Shown here one piece after another: positions 7,047 through 29,070 of a stretch of DNA of 35,327 bases. The stretch comes from a virus (taxonomy: Duplodnaviria; Heunggongvirae; Uroviricota; Caudoviricetes). The stretch lies in the IMG/VR virus record IMGVR_UViG_2563366875_000005. The stretch is one strand, 5' to 3'. The notes below the pieces were generated by a model. It saw only the letters and a program-made list of their open reading frames with translations. It did no database searches and was not told where the DNA came from. A program made the translations under genes and the position numbers. The stretch's first letter is position 1; each line of letters opens with the position of its first letter.

Positions 7047-8237
7047 TTAATTGCTGTTAACCGAGGTGACCAGATTTGCCAGGTATTTATCAGTAATACG
7101 CTGGCGCAGGGTCAGGTTTTCAAGAGGAGGCACCGGGGTATAGTCGTAGTCGATATACAGTTTTCCGGCCTTGAGGGTTTCCGCATCGTTGGATTCTTCG
7201 CTGAACCAGCAGGTCGCATCCACGATATAGCCGTTTGTTTTCAGCTCACGGAATTTGGCATTGATGCCGTCAACGATGTCGCGAATCAGCGTTGCGGTGA
7301 TGGGCTTGTCCACCGCCCACATGTGCGCCTCAGCCATCGTGTCGGCCAGCACCTGCGCGGTGCGGGTGTAGTTTTCAAAGAGGAACAGCGGGTCATCAGA
7401 GCAGGTACGGTTACCCCAGAAGCGAAAACCGTCGCGGCGAATCAGCGTTGTGACGCCTGACTCGTTAAGCAGGTCAGCATCGGTGCCGGACTCCTGCAAA
7501 TCCCAGAATACAGAGGCGCTGATGCCGGTAACACCGTTCACCCCGACATTGGACAGCGTTTTATGCCAGCCCTGCTCCTGGTCGATTTTAGCGCGCAGCC
7601 CCAGCGCACGGGCGGTGGCATACGCGGTGGCGGTGGTACTGGTGACCGTATCCCATGCGAGGAAATCCGGCCAGATGACCATCAGCTCACGCTGGCTGAA
7701 ATTCTGACGGTAGGCTTTCACCTCGGAAATGGTTTTACAGCCCCATGCGCTGATATACCCGAAAGCGCGCAACTTCTGACAGACTGATGCCAGTGCAACA
7801 GCCACCTCTTTGGTGTCCAGTCCCGGCACGCCGAGAATACGCGGTTTAACACCGGTTACCGACTCCGCCGCCAGCAGGGCTTTCAGTCCGGTGTACTGAC
7901 CGTTTTCGTCGGTGGTGCCGATGATATTGGAAACGGTCTGCGCGAGTTTCGTTTCCTCGTCGTCGCCGGTGCCGTCTTCCACACGCACGACAACGGTGAC
8001 CGGTTTTGACTGGTCGGCGATGGCCTGCAACGATGCCGCCAGCGTGCCTTTTTTACCGGCCTTTGCAATTGCGCTCTGCACATTGGTAATCAGCACCGGT
8101 TTATTGAGGGGGAAGGTTTCCGCATCCGCATCGCTGGCCGTGCAGACCATGCCGACAATGGCAGTGGATACGGTGGAAATGACGCGGGTGCCGTCGTTAA
8201 TCTCCAGCACCTGCACGCCGTGATGATAGTCACTCAT
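7047..8237 (-). CDS. FI: Contractile tail sheath protein (gpFI)
   Basis: 396 aa, MSDYHHGVQVLEINDGTRVIS..., the length and N-terminus of P2 FI from memory. Confidence 0.9.
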   Translation of the reverse strand: MSDYHHGVQVLEINDGTRVISTVSTAIVGMVCTASDADAETFPLNKPVLITNVQSAIAKAGKKGTLAASLQAIADQSKPVTVVVRVEDGTGDDEETKLAQTVSNIIGTTDENGQYTGLKALLAAESVTGVKPRILGVPGLDTKEVAVALASVCQKLRAFGYISAWGCKTISEVKAYRQNFSQRELMVIWPDFLAWDTVTSTTATAYATARALGLRAKIDQEQGWHKTLSNVGVNGVTGISASVFWDLQESGTDADLLNESGVTTLIRRDGFRFWGNRTCSDDPLFLFENYTRTAQVLADTMAEAHMWAVDKPITATLIRDIVDGINAKFRELKTNGYIVDATCWFSEESNDAETLKAGKLYIDYDYTPVPPLENLTLRQRITDKYLANLVTSVNSN

Positions 8238-8330
8238 CCGTTTAACTCCGTGGTTAATGGGTGCAACTATTTTCTGTTGTGCAGAGCATGAGACGCTATT
8301 TGACCTGGCTGGTCAGTGGATGAAACAACA

Positions 8331-8360
8331 GATAAAGAAAAGGCGGGCAATCAGCCCGCC
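8331..8360 (-). terminator. Terminator-like hairpin at the backbone/cargo boundary
   Basis: ggcgggc-aatca-gcccgcc (8342-8360) preceded on the plus strand by aaagaaaa, giving a T-rich tract after the hairpin on the minus strand. Confidence 0.45.
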
Positions 8361-8595
8361 TGTCCTGACTTGCATTCACTCATTTTCCAACTGACGGTTT
8401 ACATAGCCCAAACGTTATCAAATCTGACAGCCTGCTTTGAGCGAACAGCAGAATTTCACAACTGTCATCGCCATTGAGGATGCTCAGCTAACCTTTTACA
8501 TGTTAATCGACAGGGAGCACCTCAGCACCACATGCCACTTAACAGGTTTACTCATTGATTTTTATATGAAAAAACCTTGCTTTCAATAGCACGCC

Positions 8596-8623
8596 TTGAT
8601 TTCTATCGCTGTAATGTTAGAAT
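8596..8623 (+). promoter_or_regulatory. Putative sigma70 promoter for the cargo operon
   Basis: TTGATT (8596-8601), 16-bp spacer, TAGAAT (8618-8623), about 28 bp upstream of the ATG at 8651. By-eye match only. Confidence 0.3.
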
Positions 8624-8650
8624 GTAAAAAAACTCATTTATACAGCATTT

Positions 8651-9031
8651 ATGGATAATATATCTCTTGATTACTTCCCTGTTATAATATTGGTTTTAGC
8701 TTTTTTTATGAAAGTTTCTATAGGTAGAGGTTTTGCCTTAAGTAATTATGGAGTTGGTTTATTAGAACTACCTGTTGACCTATTTTTTGTTTCAATTTCA
8801 ATATTTGCCACAACTATTCTTACTCATTCCGATAATATCCAGCAAAAAATTCAAACCCTAATTATATATTTAATATTTACTGTAGTGTCAGCAATTCTTT
8901 GGCGTTTCAATGAGACCCTATTCTTATCACAAACAAAGAAAAGATGGTGGTGCGCTCTTTTGATCCCTGCAAACATAATAATTGCATTTTATTTCTTTAT
9001 GATCACAATTGATTTGGTGAAGCAACAATGA
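8651..9031 (+). CDS. Small multi-pass membrane protein (cargo gene 1)
   Basis: 126 aa with about four hydrophobic helices (YFPVIILVLAFFM, LPVDLFFVSISIFATTIL, IQTLIIYLIFTVVSAILW, WWCALLIPANIIIAFYFFMITIDLV); very AT-rich; stop overlaps the next start (ATGA at 9028-9031); no obvious Shine-Dalgarno. Confidence 0.7.
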   Translation: MDNISLDYFPVIILVLAFFMKVSIGRGFALSNYGVGLLELPVDLFFVSISIFATTILTHSDNIQQKIQTLIIYLIFTVVSAILWRFNETLFLSQTKKRWWCALLIPANIIIAFYFFMITIDLVKQQ

Positions 9032-9756
9032 ATATCATTCGAGAATTTACCTCTAATTTGAATGGCGAGTTTTTCGCAATTATGTTTGCTATATTTTCTT
9101 TATTGTGTGTAATAATATCTCTTTTATTACTCAAAAAAAGAGAGACCATTTACAATGAAAAACTAAATAGAATTGAACTTGATTTTATGCGTTCAAATTA
9201 TGAAAATAAGATTTATGAATTAAATGAAAAGTTAACTTTTGAAAAGAAAAGATGGTTAGATAATAATCATTTTTTCGCAAATATGCCTAATGACGATCGG
9301 AAGATAGGTGCAATCAATCAAGCGATCAATCCACATTTTTTTCTAGAGAACATGGGGTTAAACCCTGATGCATTGAACATTAAACCAAAGAGTGTATTTA
9401 TCCTCACTCCATTTAATGATAGGTATCTTAATGATTACAAAGCTATTGAACAGGCTTGTATCAACATTGGTATATCTGTTTCTCGTGGAGATGAAGAACG
9501 CATAAATGGTGATATCTTATCCTATATAGTTTCTCAAATTTGTTCATCTCAATTGATTATCGCTAATATTTCTGGTAGAAATCCTAATGTTTTCTATGAA
9601 CTAGGTATTGCCCAGGCATTAGGAAAGCCGGCCATAATAGTCAGTAAAGGTGCAAAGGATATACCTTTCGACTTAAAAAATAGACAGGTTTTCATTTACG
9701 AGAGTTTATCTGATTTAACATCAAAAATCCAGAAAGCCGTTGTGAGTCTTCTTTAA
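9028..9756 (+). CDS. Membrane-anchored protein with C-terminal NDT/TIR-like (SLOG-fold) domain (cargo gene 2)
   Basis: 242 aa; N-terminal TM helix (FFAIMFAIFSLLCVIISLLLL) followed by KKRE; charged helical linker; the C-terminal ~120 aa carry VFILTPFND and LIIANISGRNPNVFYELGIAQALGKPAIIV, resembling the catalytic-Glu motif of nucleoside 2-deoxyribosyltransferase-like / TIR-like domains. The candidate Glu is E191 (codon 9598-9600). Confidence 0.75.
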   Translation: MNIIREFTSNLNGEFFAIMFAIFSLLCVIISLLLLKKRETIYNEKLNRIELDFMRSNYENKIYELNEKLTFEKKRWLDNNHFFANMPNDDRKIGAINQAINPHFFLENMGLNPDALNIKPKSVFILTPFNDRYLNDYKAIEQACINIGISVSRGDEERINGDILSYIVSQICSSQLIIANISGRNPNVFYELGIAQALGKPAIIVSKGAKDIPFDLKNRQVFIYESLSDLTSKIQKAVVSLL

Positions 9757-9885
9757 TTCATAGTTCTGTATTTCCCCTCAGGGCGGCAATGTCGTCCTGA
9801 GTAGTCCAGCGAAAGAATTGTCAGCATTGTCTCATATTAGTCATATACCATTATTACTGCTATTTAGTTTCTGAACCACTTATAA

Positions 9886-9903
9886 CTAGAAATATATTTC
9901 TAG
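9886..9903. repeat. 18-bp perfect palindrome ctagaaatatatttctag
   Basis: Read directly; it is its own reverse complement. Lies inside the 724-bp ORF-free gap between cargo genes. Confidence 0.85.
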
Positions 9904-10231
9904 CATCCCATTACCCATCGCATACCATTATTAAAATTCTATAAGTCCTTTATCCGAAGGGCGGCTTTATATATACAGACGCTTTGCATGGATACAGACT
10001 CGCGAAGAATTCCTTAGTTATATGTCCGTTGCAGTTCAAGTATAATCGTGAACCACCGTCTACGTAGATAGCCATAATCTCCCCTTCAAAAGATACCAGC
10101 AACGAGTTAGTCGAAAAAGATATCTCAAATCGGCGGATAAGGGGCTCTCACCAGACTGAATGAGCCTCCTAAAAAACCGGGGATGATAGTAACTATTATG
10201 TAGGCTTATCCGTAGCGATTAATTTGCTACT

Positions 10232-10259
10232 AATGCCCGCTGCTGGCACAGAGCAGACC
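10232..10259. repeat. GC-rich hairpin element, copy 1
   Basis: aatgcccgctgctggcacagagcagacc shares the core ctggcacagagc with copy 3. Confidence 0.6.
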
Positions 10260-10273
10260 ATCGGACTGAACTG

Positions 10274-10304
10274 AATGTCCGCTCTGAGCGAGGAGCGGAA
10301 GTCC
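10274..10304. repeat. GC-rich hairpin element, copy 2
   Basis: aatgtccgctctgagcgaggagcggaagtcc; 7-bp stem tccgctc/gagcgga; shares aatgtccgct with copy 3. Confidence 0.6.
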
Positions 10305-10417
10305 ATAATCATTCCCACCTTTGGCAAGAGCAATACTAATTTCTGATGGGATAGGATAATTAATAGACAACTGGCTAGTCGGAAATGCAGAGTTTTAACT
10401 TATATCGCATGTATACA

Positions 10418-10445
10418 TTGACCATTTTTAAATCGATAGTAACAT
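10418..10445 (+). promoter_or_regulatory. Putative sigma70 promoter for cargo gene 3
   Basis: TTGACC (10418-10423), 16-bp spacer, TAACAT (10440-10445); AGGAA RBS at 10471-10475 before the ATG at 10481. Confidence 0.35.
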
Positions 10446-10480
10446 CTTTCAAGACAATTGAGTATATATAAGGAATAAGA

Positions 10481-11239
10481 ATGAGCTTGCACCCTGAAAT
10501 ACTATTTCATTTTACAGATAAAGACGGGTTGTTAAATATACTTGAACACACATTTAAAATATCATACGCGAGAGAAAGGATACAAGGTAAGAATGAAATA
10601 AGAGAATTTGGTATTCCTATGGTTTCTTTTTGTGATATCAAACTTTCCGATCTAAAGGATCATATTGATAAGTATAGGGATTATGGCATTGGGTTAAATA
10701 AAGCATGGGCAAATTCAAAAGGACTCAATCCAGTTTGGTATGTAAGTAAAAATAGCGAATTCCCCGATGCATTTACCTCTGCATTAAACTCTTTATATCG
10801 AAAAATGGATTCTATATTGGACAATAAAGAGTATAAAGAATTTAATGAAACTTACATGAAATTCATGGATATATATAGATATCTTAAAAATTACGAGGGG
10901 GAACTAAAAAGATCCAAAGAAGTAATTAAAAACTATAGATTTGCGGATGAAAAAGAATGGAGATTCGTTCCAAGTATCAGCGAAGAAGATATATTACCAT
11001 TCGTACCTATTACTAAAATAAAAACAAAAAACCAGAAAGCGGAATATAATAATCAGATCAGTCATCTTCGCTTGAGCTTTGAGCCAAAAGATATAAAGTA
11101 TATCATTGTCAAAGATGAACATGATATTATTGATATTGTTAATCATCTTAAAATGGTTAAAAGTAGATTCTCTTCTCTTGATATAACACAACTACAAACG
11201 CGCATATTGACTACTGAGCAAATAAAAACTGACATGTGA
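10481..11239 (+). CDS. Hypothetical soluble cargo protein (cargo gene 3), possible Abi-like single-gene defence or exclusion protein
   Basis: 252 aa, no TM segments, Lys/Glu/Tyr/Asn-rich, very AT-rich with its own promoter and RBS; N-terminus MSLHPEILFHFTDKDGLLNILEH. I could not place it in a family from sequence alone. Confidence 0.75.
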   Translation: MSLHPEILFHFTDKDGLLNILEHTFKISYARERIQGKNEIREFGIPMVSFCDIKLSDLKDHIDKYRDYGIGLNKAWANSKGLNPVWYVSKNSEFPDAFTSALNSLYRKMDSILDNKEYKEFNETYMKFMDIYRYLKNYEGELKRSKEVIKNYRFADEKEWRFVPSISEEDILPFVPITKIKTKNQKAEYNNQISHLRLSFEPKDIKYIIVKDEHDIIDIVNHLKMVKSRFSSLDITQLQTRILTTEQIKTDM

Positions 11240-11285
11240 TGATATTATTAACTATTCAAAGGTTAATAATACAACCAGCGGTATC

Positions 11286-11316
11286 AATGTCCGCTTCTGG
11301 CACAGAGCGGACTGTC
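11286..11316. repeat. GC-rich hairpin element, copy 3
   Basis: aatgtccgcttctggcacagagcggactgtc; 7-bp stem gtccgct/agcggac with a 10-nt loop; 47 bp after the gene 3 stop and 58 bp before the G stop on the other strand. Confidence 0.6.
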
Positions 11317-11373
11317 AGATTAGGCTTTACTCTGTGCCATAGATATGTAAGCTCACACCAGAGATCATACAAC

Positions 11374-11901
11374 TTATTGCGGCATTTCCGGCCATTCGGG
11401 ATTTGCAGGATCCACACGACTGACCAGAACGCTGTAGCGTTCCCATGCTTCCAGTCGGCTGCGTTCCTCATCCGTCGCCATATTCAGCCTGACAGCGCGT
11501 TCCAGCGGCAAAATCACGGATTCAGCTTCGGAAAGTAAAGCTGCCTTTTGTGATTCTGCCAGTTGCTGCTGTTCATCTGCCGTATAAATCCGCTTAATCA
11601 CGGCACCATCCTTAAACATCCATTTACCTGAGTCATCAGCACGTCGGTTGGCGGTAATATCAGGAACCTCGACAACGCTAAAACCTTCAGGGTTAAGCGT
11701 TGAAACATCTCTGGTGATGCCGACAATTATATTATTCTCGTCGTAAACAATCTTTATCGTGTCTTCCTGAAAATTACTTACTTCCTCATACCAGTTTTTT
11801 CCGTCTTCAGACCATAACCAGATAACATCAAAATTTTTTGTCAGTTGATATTGGGCAACAGTTTTGGGATTACCCGCAGTAATATTTTTTAAATGCTGCA
11901 T
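11374..11901 (-). CDS. G: Tail fiber assembly chaperone (gpG)
   Basis: 175 aa, immediately downstream of the tail fiber gene; N-terminus [20 protein letters not shown]. Confidence 0.85.
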
Positions 11902-25852: not shown

Positions 25853-28800
25853 TTACAATGTTGGAGCATCAATCAGACACTTATCTCGCTCCACCTTTAG
25901 TGCCAAAAAACTCAGTCTGATTGATAAATATTTCATATCATCACCTCCTCCACTGATATCAAACTGTTGCTCATTCAACTCCTTAGCATATTCTAACTCT
26001 TTATCATAAGATGAGGTTACACGCCAAATTACAGAACCACGCTTAAATAAGTAGTATAAGCCATTAACATCCCGATACGCTTTCATAAGCTGCCATAACA
26101 CATCGGTACATCTGTTAAAAAGCTCATCTAATCGCTGCAAGAACAAATAATCATAAACGGCCTTTAATTCCCTCACCCCCTCCGCATCAATTTTTTCAAA
26201 CTCTCCGCAACGTACCAACTCTTCATACTTAACAAGTAACGCCCTGGCCTTAGTATACACTCCCCCTTCATTTTTTATGGCATTATCAATGTATTTGAAA
26301 GATGAACCAGAAAACAAATAATGAAGTTTAATGCTAATATTATTAGCCAGCGTGTTATACCCAGCAGCTCGGGACTTTTTCTCGAGAGAAATAAGCTTAT
26401 TAACCCTTTTACCATGAGACAATTCGTCAGCCAAATGAACTTCAGCATTGATATAATAACTAGAAGACTTTGGAGCTATCTTTTTTAATTTTATTGCGTA
26501 TTTTCGTGCTTTTTCATCATTATATTCAGAGCATGCCATCATAATATTATCAAGCATTTTAAAATAATATTCCTTTTGACAAAACTCTTTTGCCTCGAAC
26601 TCATCACTTAAAGGCTCAATAAATTCAACACTTTGTTCAACCTCATCAATCATTCTTAAACTTGTAGCCAAAAAATACGCAGCCCTAAATTTATCAAGAA
26701 TATCCAAATGAGAAATATTAGAATAAAGCATCCGAGAAAATGCGACGAGTTCTTTATAGTAACATGCACTCTTTAAAAAGATGCAATATCCTATAGAAAC
26801 ATGTATTAATGATTTAACTTCTCGATCATAATGATTAATATCTATTAATGAAAAGTATGAACTAATAGCTGAATGGACATTTCCAGGATAAAACTCCGGG
26901 CTTTCAAGCATCATCTTCACTGTAGGAGAGACTCTCACTTTCCCTGACATCCAATCGCTACCGATACAAAGTCCTAGGGATTTTTTTACAAGTTCATACC
27001 GTTGGTTAGGATCCATACCCTGCTTTACAAAATCACTAACAACTGGTGATATCCTTAATATTTTATAATTATCCTTTGTAATTGTATAAATCAGACCATA
27101 TCTTTCTAGTTTTGCGAAATCATCAAAATGAAAATCATACGATGAATAATAAGAGCGAATATTTGTCAATTTCTCCCCATATTCAAGCATAGAGAAAATG
27201 CATAGTAATGAATATAGTTTTCTATTATCACTTCTAATCTCGTTTATTTGCTTGGATATGTAGTGTGGAATGTCCGTATTTGTTCCCTCTGCCGAAACAA
27301 CAATATTTCCTGCATCAAGGACTTCATCAAATGACATTAACTCATAATACTCTTTAACCTTATCTAATTTTAAAGGTATTCCATTTGTTATTTCATACAA
27401 CCTATCAAGTTTCTCTCTTTTTATTTCAGTAATATCAGTGCCAACTTTAATATACTCCTTTATATCATCTAAAGATAAAGGCTGTAATTCCACTATACCA
27501 GAGCATATCCCGTTACATGTCGCTGATACAAAAATAACTTTCACACCAGAACTAAGATCTGATGATAATTTCGCAATCTCAGAAAAGAAAGCTTTAGTTG
27601 ATGGAGGAAGTCTGGCTATGTTATCAAGAATTAAAATCCGCTTTCCTAATCCATTATTAGATATGAAGGTTGCAATATCGATACCGATATCCTGTTTTAT
27701 TTTAACTTCAATATCATGAGATTCAGTCAATCCATTGACATCACTATAATAACATGTAAAATCATAAAATTCATCATGAATAAAAGAATATAAAAAACCT
27801 GCTTTTCCGTATCCCCAACCAGAAACAAGCTCAAAATGATTGTTATTATTTAAATAATCAGTGGCTTTTTTTTGCTCTACTAATCTAATTATATCATGCG
27901 CAGGCTCAACTGAAAGGTTATAGGGTCTCAGCGAAATAACTATGCTTTCTGTTATCGGCTGTAATCCAGTTTTTTTTACAACAAACTTACTTAATTGTTT
28001 TTTTTTACTAATCTCAGCCAAAGCATCTTCAAAGTATGTATTACAGTCAACCCCAACATATCCTTGAAAACGAGCATTAACAAGCGCTGGTTGAATAATT
28101 TCAATCAATCGTGAATGTTCTTTACTCACATCATCAATTGAGTTTTTATAAAAACCCCATCTAACATTATAACTTGGCTGAAACTCATGGACGATGTTTC
28201 TTAACGCCTGTAGAAAAACATCATCCCAACCTGCATATCCAATAACATATAATTTACTTGTATCCAATATATTTTTTATTGACAACTCAATTTTTTTCCT
28301 CAATGAAGAAAGCTGAGTTTGAGTATGCATAGTATCTCCATCCCAAACTCCATGTAAATGCACTACGGGAATGGATTCGCCTGAATAGCTGGTAACGCTA
28401 CCAATTGGTTGATCTACAATAAGATTATGTACATTACAATTTCTATTTACTCTAAACAATGCCTCTTCAATCAATGGATCAAAATTTGTTGTAAGTATGC
28501 ATTTTACTTTAATGCTAGTTTCTGAAATAAGCCTTGAAAAATCATCAAGTGATTTAGTAATTAACCATTTGTCGCCGCTCCTTGCATTATTCATTGCAAG
28601 AGCCATTATTTCTTTAACTTCATCTTGATCACCTACCTTCAAAAGGTATTCGAAACTTTTTTGATATTTATCAGTTTCACTTAAACCGATTATGTTACTT
28701 TCAAAGCCATCATAAATATCTAAATCAATCATATATTGCCGCAGAATATCATTCATCCCTGAAACGCCCGGTACCCCATTCCCCTCCGGCGAGCAACTCA

Positions 28801-28888
28801 CGGCTGACCCCAGAAGAAAACTAACGTCTTTACCTTTCCGAATATCCAATACCAAAGACTTTACAAATTCAGTATAAGAATTAAACAT
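25853..28888 (-). CDS. Large SIR2-domain defence protein (DSR2-like defence-associated sirtuin)
   Basis: About 1011 aa from the ATG at 28888 (AGGGA RBS); N-terminal SIR2 motifs FLLGSAVS, ILTTNFD and VVHLHG, then about 700 aa of mostly helical sequence; very AT-rich. The track ORF starts at 28981, but the 31-residue extension looks non-native. Confidence 0.8.
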   Translation of the reverse strand: MFNSYTEFVKSLVLDIRKGKDVSFLLGSAVSCSPEGNGVPGVSGMNDILRQYMIDLDIYDGFESNIIGLSETDKYQKSFEYLLKVGDQDEVKEIMALAMNNARSGDKWLITKSLDDFSRLISETSIKVKCILTTNFDPLIEEALFRVNRNCNVHNLIVDQPIGSVTSYSGESIPVVHLHGVWDGDTMHTQTQLSSLRKKIELSIKNILDTSKLYVIGYAGWDDVFLQALRNIVHEFQPSYNVRWGFYKNSIDDVSKEHSRLIEIIQPALVNARFQGYVGVDCNTYFEDALAEISKKKQLSKFVVKKTGLQPITESIVISLRPYNLSVEPAHDIIRLVEQKKATDYLNNNNHFELVSGWGYGKAGFLYSFIHDEFYDFTCYYSDVNGLTESHDIEVKIKQDIGIDIATFISNNGLGKRILILDNIARLPPSTKAFFSEIAKLSSDLSSGVKVIFVSATCNGICSGIVELQPLSLDDIKEYIKVGTDITEIKREKLDRLYEITNGIPLKLDKVKEYYELMSFDEVLDAGNIVVSAEGTNTDIPHYISKQINEIRSDNRKLYSLLCIFSMLEYGEKLTNIRSYYSSYDFHFDDFAKLERYGLIYTITKDNYKILRISPVVSDFVKQGMDPNQRYELVKKSLGLCIGSDWMSGKVRVSPTVKMMLESPEFYPGNVHSAISSYFSLIDINHYDREVKSLIHVSIGYCIFLKSACYYKELVAFSRMLYSNISHLDILDKFRAAYFLATSLRMIDEVEQSVEFIEPLSDEFEAKEFCQKEYYFKMLDNIMMACSEYNDEKARKYAIKLKKIAPKSSSYYINAEVHLADELSHGKRVNKLISLEKKSRAAGYNTLANNISIKLHYLFSGSSFKYIDNAIKNEGGVYTKARALLVKYEELVRCGEFEKIDAEGVRELKAVYDYLFLQRLDELFNRCTDVLWQLMKAYRDVNGLYYLFKRGSVIWRVTSSYDKELEYAKELNEQQFDISGGGDDMKYLSIRLSFLALKVERDKCLIDAPTL

Positions 28889-29070
28889 TAAGCAATCCCT
28901 TTCGTTATATGACGAAACTACAAGCAGAGAATTTCTGATAATTTTTACATTATGAAACCAAAGCATCAACACATAATACAAAACAAAAGTAACTTATTGA
29001 TTTGTATATAATTTCCATTATAAGTCTACACGTAATGCTACAGGAGCATTTTGAAGACCACTCCCCGCTT

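Follow-up and report, generated by a model that had tools for sequence, protein, structure and literature searches.

We analyzed a stretch of 35,327 nucleotides from a tailed phage (IMG/VR record IMGVR_UViG_2563366875_000005; hereafter the window), with a focus on the short GC-rich inverted repeats around its cargo genes. The window is a P2-like prophage whose late genes are on the minus strand. Between the genes for gpG and gpFI lies an AT-rich island at ~8.46–11.29 kb (the GC content is 30–41% across 8.5–11.5 kb, against ~55% in the backbone). The DNA on both sides aligns to P2, Wphi, L-413C, and many other P2-like phages, and the AT-rich interior does not, so this island is the classical Z/fun cargo hotspot of P2. 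It contains three open reading frames (ORFs), all on the plus strand, which encode 126, 242, and 252 amino acids.

A sequence-only reading of the window had described three related GC-rich hairpins around the 252-amino-acid gene. It proposed that they were terminators or insulators, or else footprints left by the recombination that brought in the gene as a cassette. Our favored interpretation, to which we assign a probability of roughly 60%, is that these three elements and a fourth belong to a family of DNA sites with two members, which mark the limits of exchangeable gene cassettes, and that they are recombination sites for cassette exchange.

Four related elements frame two cassettes

All three elements are real, and their setting is as described: in AT-rich DNA, a pair of elements lies 177 nt upstream of the gene and the third lies 47 nt downstream. 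They are also related to each other. Positions 10232–10265 and 11286–11319 are 82% identical over 34 nt, and 10266–10299 is 79% complementary to 11290–11323. But the set was incomplete, as a fourth copy at the left end of the island had been overlooked; it is 75% complementary to the copy at the right end (8417–8460 vs. 11286–11324). Also, the two upstream elements are both genuine but are not of the same kind: one is an R-type site and the other is an L-type site, 11 nt apart. Profiles of the two types match exactly four places in the window (nhmmer E = 9e-9, 1e-6, 2e-5, and 2e-5 in a 1.8-Mb database), and no match was found elsewhere in the window. By itself, the 7-N10-7 stem pattern does not reach significance in the window (4 matches vs. 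1.5 expected).

The island reads L, cassette 1, R', linker, L', cassette 2, and R (Table 1). Because of this layout, we view the two upstream "hairpins" as an R-L doublet that joins two cassettes. The same kind of R-spacer-L junction is found inside other P2 hotspots with multiple cargos. The R site at the right border is followed by a P2-specific tail, TGTCAGATTAGG.

Part of this R site, the center region TGGCACAGAG (11298–11307), recurs in inverted form as CTCTGTGCCA at 11330–11339, which is 22 nt downstream and within the conserved P2 flank. Read on the minus strand, 11298–11339 looks like a degenerate doublet, with a putative remnant half-site, a spacer, and the border site.

Table 1. Sites, cassettes, and neighboring features of the Z/fun hotspot in the window
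Feature	Position	Strand	Details
gpFI tail sheath gene	7047–8237	−	Pfam Phage_sheath_1, 9.8e-34; aligns to FI of P2, Wphi, and others; conserved core gene left of the hotspot
Intrinsic terminator of the late V-G operon	8341–8361	−	8-bp GC stem followed by TTTCTTT; backbone, outside the repeat family
L site, left island border	8417–8460	+	arms 8430–8436 and 8447–8453; center GAGCGA at 8439–8444; profile E = 4.9e-15
Cassette 1	8457–10230	+	126-aa ORF (8651–9031) and 242-aa ORF (9028–9756)
R' site, right end of cassette 1 (element 1)	10231–10261	+	arms 10235–10241 and 10252–10258; center TGGCAC at 10244–10249; E = 1.7e-5
R'-L' linker	10262–10272	+	the R-linker-L doublet spans 10231–10303
L' site, left end of cassette 2 (element 2)	10273–10303	+	arms 10277–10283 and 10294–10300; center GAGCGA at 10286–10291; E = 1.1e-6
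Cassette 2	10304–11285	+	AbiGi-family gene at 10481–11239 (252 aa); Pfam AbiGi, 2.8e-31; PADLOC AbiGi, 1.4e-47
R site, right island border (element 3)	11286–11324	+	arms 11289–11295 and 11306–11312; center TGGCAC at 11298–11303; E = 5.2e-17 and 8.8e-9 in two profile searches
gpG tail-fibre assembly gene	11374–11901	−	Pfam Caudo_TAP, 8e-35; aligns to G of P2-like phages; conserved core gene right of the hotspot

Two types of site in a fixed order

The two types are distinguished by the loop, which is TTGAGCGARR in L and YYTGGCACAG in R; the stem arms are identical between the types. The consensus of L is GAAsGTCyGCTTy-GAGCGA-rrAGCrGACrTT and that of R is yAAyGTCCGCTyy-TGGCAC-AGAGCGGAC. R is an inverted variant of L and approximates its reverse complement. 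On the opposite strand, the center of R is GTGCCA, which differs from GAGCGA at two of six positions. In the column profile, complementarity extends past the 7-nt stem (positions 2–13 vs. 31–20). The design of a site is inverted arms of 12–13 bp around a near-invariant, asymmetric hexamer (GAGCGA in L or TGGCAC in R), and these hexamers are the best-conserved columns of the profile, at least as conserved as the stem arms.

The order of the sites was examined in a census of 350 elements at 140 loci. Each cassette has L on its left and R on its right, and where two cassettes adjoin, they are connected by a doublet of the form R-(about 18 nt)-L. All of the sites are on one strand in 139 of the 140 loci. 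The intervals from L to R (n = 112) range from 335 to 7530 bp, with a median of 1.5 kb, and the intervals from R to L are short (n = 76, with 10–14 nt between the ends of the hits) except for two long ones. The doublets are imperfect palindromes of 66–72 nt with short, semi-conserved linkers. The cargo genes are found in either orientation relative to the polarity of the sites.

The sites are at the borders of P2-like hotspots

One check that had been suggested for the hairpins was to look for them at the cargo boundaries of other P2-like prophages. From 80 loci that encode close relatives of gpG, we cut out the G-FI interval, and we compared 72 of these intervals. The family is indeed there: L is found at a fixed position in 64 of the 72 P2-like Z/fun loci and R in 62. 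P2 itself has L and R around fun(Z) (L001, 525–565 and 2632–2668). The left border is ATCAAATCTGACA-GTCTGCT-TTGAGCGAGA-AGCGGAC-ATT, and the right border is AAT-GTCCGCT-CTTGGCACAG-AGCGGAC-TGTCAGATTAGG. In the 68 hotspots that are occupied, there are 31 distinct cargo contents between L and R.

When the P2 borders were anchored on the backbone flanks only, L was at least 90% conserved through its left arm and GAGCGA, after which conservation fell to 50–60%. R mirrors this: conservation is low up to the two variable pyrimidines and is at least 90% from TGGCAC on. The switch from backbone to cassette falls at the central hexamer. We rejected the idea that these borders are conserved P2 backbone that is swapped via homology in G and FI: the sites recur within islands and outside of P2, and their inner arms vary with the cassette.

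Cassettes are exchanged at the sites

Cassette 1 is found, at 99.3% nucleotide identity, in two loci that are not P2-like (L093 and L097), where the neighboring genes encode DUF968/HNHc_6, Hok, AAA_15 ATPase, HNH, DUF2513, and DUF977 proteins. The homology of the window to these loci starts at 8438, in the center of L, and ends at 10241, in R'. In L097, homology runs on across the doublet to the center of L', and the sequences diverge directly after GAGCGAG; beyond this point, the window has AbiGi, whereas L097 has an HNH cassette. L093 is an array with sites between successive cassettes.

This is not the only shared cassette. In an all-against-all search, at least five further cassette families were common to unrelated contexts, with the homology ending in L and R. 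For instance, the P2-like locus L003 and the lambdoid locus L119 are homologous from position 5 of L to position 28 of R. In another example, a viral contig and Enterobacter chuandaensis share a cassette. At the lambdoid border, conservation breaks directly after YGAGCGA, and the pairwise breakpoints place the exchange in L between positions 13 and 20.

These comparisons show that P2-like phages, genomic islands, plasmids, and lambdoid prophages exchange cassettes at the sites. A cassette takes along the right arm of L and the left arm of R, and the outer arms and the linker stay with the context. Blocks that run from one L center to the next L center also move between contexts. The proposal that the elements were footprints of the recombination that delivered the gene is upheld by where homology stops, by the variety of cargo at one P2 locus, and by the arrays elsewhere. 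But they are not just passive footprints, as the sites are conserved, come in types, and have an orientation.

The junction that follows cassette 1 is polymorphic: it is R'-L' in the window, R'-R'-L' in L097, and a single hybrid site in L093. In L097 (7199–7321), there is a 42-bp tandem duplication of R' and the linker. The hybrid site in L093 (7205–7237) consists of the left arm of R' joined to the center and right arm of L. These variants suggest slippage or unequal exchange between shared (CTG)AATGTCCGCT blocks, so homology-type events do occur at the sites.

The main rival to our interpretation is that the sites are nothing but portable homology. With no dedicated enzyme, RecA or a phage system such as Red, RecET, or Erf would swap cassettes via ~25–35 bp of shared sequence. 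The duplication in L097 and the hybrid in L093 look like the products of unequal exchange or slippage between direct repeats of 10–13 nt, and the breakpoints fall anywhere within the shared blocks and are diffuse in R. The absence of a recombinase gene linked to the arrays also fits, as does the prominence of lambdoid prophages, which carry such recombinases, among the hosts of doublets. On the other hand, efficient homologous exchange usually requires at least as much as, or more than, the 24–32 bp at 80–90% identity that the sites share. Portable homology also leaves much unexplained: the conservation of the sequence across the Enterobacterales, the two types, the near-invariant asymmetric centers, the 12-6-12 symmetry, and the strict order and strand of L and R. 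Overall, we consider this explanation unlikely.

Occurrence in other mobile elements

Among complete genomes of E. coli, 517 of 5426 contain doublet-like sequences, which are always intergenic and occur at a median of one place. They are confined to the cargo regions of mobile elements, such as an island of strain CFT073 and the end of a lambdoid prophage, where a cassette with retron Eco8 lies between L and R. In the island of CFT073 (L099, 13253–13294), an R site is followed by a P2-specific tail, TGTCAGATTAG, so this end of the cassette was probably acquired from a P2-type hotspot. Another R site in that island adjoins an integrase fragment (11116–11718), an arrangement that does not recur.

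Scanning IMG/VR for the exact pattern gave 47 contigs, mostly of 40–70 kb. In the one annotated locus, the doublet lies in the P-to-Q region beside a LexA-DNA-binding/DUF968/Q block. Lambdoid prophages are major hosts of the doublets. Among isolated phages, the doublet query matched only three records, so doublets are rare in cultured phages.

In species-representative genomes, the exact pattern had 91 matches, of which ~33 would be expected by chance. True sites are found at 48 of these loci, and 45 have two or more sites. All 45 of the multi-site loci are from Enterobacterales, except for one contig that is labelled as Veillonella; the three other exceptions among the 48 are matches to a single site. 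The genera are Pantoea, Erwinia, Mixta, Enterobacter, Klebsiella, Citrobacter, Leclercia, Raoultella, Serratia, Ewingella, Chimaeribacter, Buttiauxella, Phytobacter, and Scandinavium. The contig labelled as uncultured Veillonella sp. (L201) is just 4.1 kb and contains an enterobacterial lambdoid hotspot border with three doublets; it is probably a mis-binned fragment of an enterobacterial prophage.

The cargo outside of E. coli consists of ordinary accessory genes. The 128 ORFs from the 45 arrays include 123 Pfam families, and the most common are AraC, LysR, glyoxalase, GNAT, aldo-keto reductase, and MFS. Plasmids also contain sites: 410 plasmid records match (127 from Pantoea, 113 from Klebsiella, and 106 from Enterobacter), at up to 15 places each, and in plasmids of these three genera, cassettes are set apart by R-spacer-L doublets. 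In the Pantoea ananatis plasmid NZ_CP020945.2, of which 150 kb was read, there are 30 sites, all on one strand and all within 60.8–122.8 kb. They frame single-gene cassettes that encode, for example, GNAT, VOC, NUDIX, ASCH, and metallophosphoesterase proteins. The tyrosine recombinases of this plasmid are over 17 kb away from the arrays, and the annotations of the CFT073 island, the lambdoid prophage end, and the Pantoea plasmid show no recurrent linked recombinase or transposase. At one place in the plasmid (122735–123787; L241), a transposase gene of the IS110 family directly follows R, at the end of a duplicated pair of GNAT and VOC cassettes. Some IS110/IS1111 elements target palindromic recombination sites.

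The sequence-only reading had asked if the hairpins have a distribution like that of repetitive extragenic palindromes (REPs) in the host genome. The family does occur outside of P2, but in ordered, same-strand arrays around cassettes rather than as scattered copies. A relationship to REP, BIME, or REPIN elements is nevertheless worth considering. These would be selfish or structural intergenic palindromes, possibly spread by an HUH (RAYT-type) transposase that acts on single-stranded DNA, and they would be at cassette borders merely because borders are intergenic. Like REPINs, the sites come as two palindromic variants in alternating orientations, and their doublets have short, semi-conserved linkers and fold as long imperfect hairpins. 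Also, in Pantoea and Erwinia the genes around them are ordinary accessory genes, they reach 15 copies in a plasmid, and one R is directly beside an IS110 element. However, the sites have a strict single-strand polarity (139 of the 140 loci in the census), and L and R alternate strictly; the sites in the P. ananatis plasmid are confined to 62 of the 150 kb read; and in the loci and plasmids covered, copies number in the tens, not the hundreds, and cluster in variable regions. In E. coli, they are rare and are confined to the cargo of mobile elements. By inspection of the sequences, they lack the GTAG-type 5' motif of REPs, and they show no covariation in the stems (see below). Where identical cassettes are found in unrelated contexts, their ends fall within the sites. 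So we think that a REP-like origin is improbable.

We also compared the sites to the ends of IS200/IS605 and PATE elements, whose left and right subterminal hairpins resemble each other on one strand and which depend on a TnpA (Y1) gene in cis or trans. L and R relate best as inverted copies, with 79% complementarity and 7 of 10 loop positions matching after reverse complementation, although the self-complementary stems also permit a direct reading. No transposase recurs near the arrays (128 ORFs beside 45 arrays).

Hairpins in RNA or sites in DNA

Stems of 5–7 bp had been proposed for the elements. Two of the elements do fold, with predicted stems of 7–8 bp at 10277–10300 and 11289–11312 (z = −2.0 to −2.6). 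But the element at 10235–10258 folds no better than shuffled sequences (z = −0.4), and it is recognisable from its sequence alone. The R'-L' doublet folds as a 62-nt imperfect palindrome with a predicted free energy of −36 kcal/mol (z = −4.7).

These structures could act at the RNA level, as intrinsic terminators, as insulators, or as hairpins that stabilise mRNA, and could keep transcription of the cargo out of the late operon and vice versa. GC-rich stems at the ends of genes, in AT-rich DNA, between cargo and late genes that are transcribed against each other, would suit this role, as would the high stability of the doublet. However, there is no T-run after the stems on either strand (columns 29–32), and a scan for the terminator consensus did not call the sites, even though it called the true operon terminator at 8361–8341. 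Furthermore, base pairing is not what is conserved. If the 3' arms are shuffled among sequences, the paired fraction hardly changes (0.872 vs. 0.869 for L, and 0.875 vs. 0.881 for R). In R stems, the C-A and T-G combinations are frequent, and the compensating T-A pair (T8/A25) never occurs. Covariation is likewise absent across the doublet and between a cassette's two ends, conservation is as high in the loops as in the stems, no Rfam family matches, and the orientation of the cargo genes varies. Without a U-tract and without base-pair covariation, the elements are not terminators. Given the terminator scan, the folding of single elements, the search of Rfam, and the null result for covariation, we rejected both a terminator and a structured RNA, and we consider any role as an RNA signal to be very improbable.

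Instead, the elements are best read as double-stranded sites: 12/13-6-12/13 inverted repeats with an asymmetric center, to which exchange maps. Because we infer that like sites recombine with like, we view the "hairpins" as the arms of such sites and not as RNA structures.

A possible recombination mechanism

Inverted-repeat arms around a 6-bp asymmetric center are the anatomy of the core sites of tyrosine recombinases (dif, lox, and FRT). By analogy, L and R may be core sites of this kind, but this is a resemblance and not a demonstration. In the proposed mechanism, a site-specific recombinase that acts in trans would recombine L with L and R with R. When read inward, the centers are GAGCGA and GTGCCA, and the differences at two of six positions would allow L to pair with L and R with R, but not L with R. 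A double exchange would swap a cassette. A single exchange between two L sites would excise or insert a circle of the form [cassette-R-linker-L]. If a circle with cassette 1 were inserted at the L site of a hotspot that carried AbiGi, the result would be exactly the layout of the window, so one L-by-L exchange would explain why the island has two cassettes.

Our tentative proposal, which is less likely than the general role in cassette exchange, is that L and R serve a trans-acting, site-specific recombinase as heterospecific core sites, and that this enzyme would carry out natural cassette exchange and would move integron-like [cassette-R-linker-L] circles across P2-like and lambdoid prophages, islands, and the plasmids of Enterobacterales. 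As a candidate lead, the center of R on the opposite strand, GTGCCA(A/G), resembles GTGCCAA, the 7-bp core sequence of the sfx sites of shufflons, on which the tyrosine recombinase Rci acts.

In design, this arrangement is analogous to engineered cassette exchange with lox or FRT, in which a cassette is bracketed by two related, inversely oriented sites that differ only in the central spacer; recombination would be possible between like sites but not between unlike ones. It also resembles the pdif (XerC/XerD) modules of Acinetobacter plasmids, which are discrete modules bounded by inversely oriented arm-6 bp-arm sites, occur in strings on plasmids, and use a host enzyme in trans. The sites around each of our cassettes have this form (12/13-6-12/13). 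But there are two sites (R and L) between neighboring cassettes instead of one shared site, and the hosts are Enterobacterales. Compared by eye, the arms (GTCyGCTTy) are also unlike the arms of dif or cer (GGTGCGCATAA or TTATGTTAAAT).

The arrays are also reminiscent of integrons. Both consist of small, mostly single-gene cassettes with diverse cargo (GNAT, glyoxalase/VOC, NUDIX, and defense genes), separated by imperfect palindromes (66–72 nt here) in one orientation. The point of exchange is fixed and lies close to one end of the palindrome, and the unit that is common to different contexts is a cassette with the palindrome that follows it. The core boxes of attC sites are RYYYAAC and GTTRRRY. 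These boxes are absent here, where the outer flanks are only yAAy and rTT and the four positions beyond them are neither conserved nor complementary, so we ruled out canonical attC sites. The length of the doublet is within the range for attC (~57–141 nt), but its sequence is conserved and its structure is not, with pairing no better than after shuffling. Also in contrast to integrons, there is no intI, attI, or Pc beside the arrays, the cargo is in either orientation, and single L and R sites are found at the outer borders as well.

Several observations weigh against our interpretation. Homologous recombination, whether general or phage-encoded, via 25–35 bp of shared sequence would give the same pattern of exchange. 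Because all of the sites share the conserved blocks, the breakpoints are resolved only to within those blocks, and they are more diffuse in R than in L. Conservation of the sites was measured in part on sets that were selected by motif, with the flank-anchored control covering the P2 borders only. A Pfam survey of the 128 ORFs beside the 45 arrays found no recombinase, integrase, or transposase that recurs; there is no recombinase or integrase within the island of the window; and P2 and lambdoid phages share no obvious candidate recombinase. In the Erwiniaceae, where the cargo is ordinary accessory genes, the elements could be other intergenic repeats. We saw no circular intermediate and no empty site of the predicted form. 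Four P2-like loci do have an empty G-FI interval (L012 and L066–L068), in which the stop codon of G is joined directly to the operon terminator, but these lack both sites as well as ~55 nt of flank on each side (8364–8420 and 11322–11373 in the window). As a whole, the flank-L...R-flank block has the appearance of an old insertion in the backbone of P2.

Cargo of the window

No function was assigned to the 126-amino-acid protein of cassette 1 by domain searches. The 242-amino-acid protein has weak TIR-like similarity (PADLOC TIR effector, 5.4e-9) and a hit to Nuc_deoxyrib_tr (nucleoside 2-deoxyribosyltransferase-like) from Pfam that is under the family's cutoff (1.4e-3). No PADLOC system matched the two ORFs (8651–9756) as a pair. 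Cassette 1 is widespread (186 index blocks) and has defense-type neighbors in the window and in L093 and L097. Judging from these sequences, cassette 1 is a candidate two-gene anti-phage system.

The flanks of the hotspot (8200–11500) match 1832 of the 5426 complete E. coli genomes, and at the sensitivity of megablast, the cargo of the window's hotspot is in none of the 5426. The exact cargo proteins are present in many draft assemblies. The operon terminator at 8361–8341 is retained in the empty loci (L012 and L066–68), from which 8364–11373 is absent.

A second AT-rich island (25853–28981 on the minus strand, 30–37% GC), between the portal gene and gpA, is the old/tin hotspot. It encodes a single protein of 1042 amino acids with an N-terminal SIR2-like domain (Pfam SIR2_2, 2.6e-7; SIR2-type models of PADLOC, to 1e-15). 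The profile search of the window found no L or R sites in this island, so within this phage, the site family is specific to the Z/fun hotspot.

Prior work and implications

The border repeats of this hotspot and the idea of site-specific exchange are prior art, as the passage of a review that deals with fun states that inverted repeats lie on both sides of it and make site-specific recombination possible, and credits Nilsson 2004 (PMC8987985). As described there, the fun(Z) repeats of P2-like coliphages and enterobacterial genomes (Nilsson, Karlsson & Haggard-Ljungquist 2004) share with our sites the G-FI locus, the inverted repeats around the cargo, and site-specific exchange between phages and bacterial genomes. 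In the window, a pair of inverted repeats likewise flanks the insert between G and FI. The same repeats also flank the same cargo outside of P2, as seen for cassette 1 in L093 and L097 and for the R site with a P2-type tail in CFT073. The window adds a new instance, with two cassettes, to a known but neglected kind of element. Relative to the 2004 work, possible novelties are the internal R-L doublet with its two-cassette layout, the syntax of the arrays, the 12-6-12 anatomy, the heterospecific centers, and the mapping of exchange to the centers; the occurrence in lambdoid prophages, plasmids, and Erwiniaceae may be new as well. The core sequences of L and R were not found in any paper in the literature that we searched, and for integron-like cassettes in prophages or clusters of attC sites lacking integron integrases (CALIN) in Pantoea, we found nothing relevant.

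Large recent studies of the defense hotspots of P2 and P4 describe the mechanism of the very fast swapping of defense systems as an open question; they discuss cos ends, homology in flanking genes, and illegitimate recombination, and do not mention the repeats (PMC9122126, PMC13586616). Two sequences of ~30 bp with a mapped region of exchange provide a testable handle on the swapping of defense cassettes. The sites would allow the borders of cassettes to be annotated at the level of single bases (for example, separating the TIR-like pair from AbiGi), would allow cassette traffic to be traced between phages, plasmids, and islands, and would help in searching for the recombinase through phylogenetic profiling. 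If L and R are indeed heterospecific recombination targets, then they would be a ready-made, natural cassette-exchange system for Enterobacterales. They would also make up a system of gene cassettes that has neither attC nor an integron integrase, and this would supply the missing mechanism for the swapping of anti-phage defenses in hotspots.

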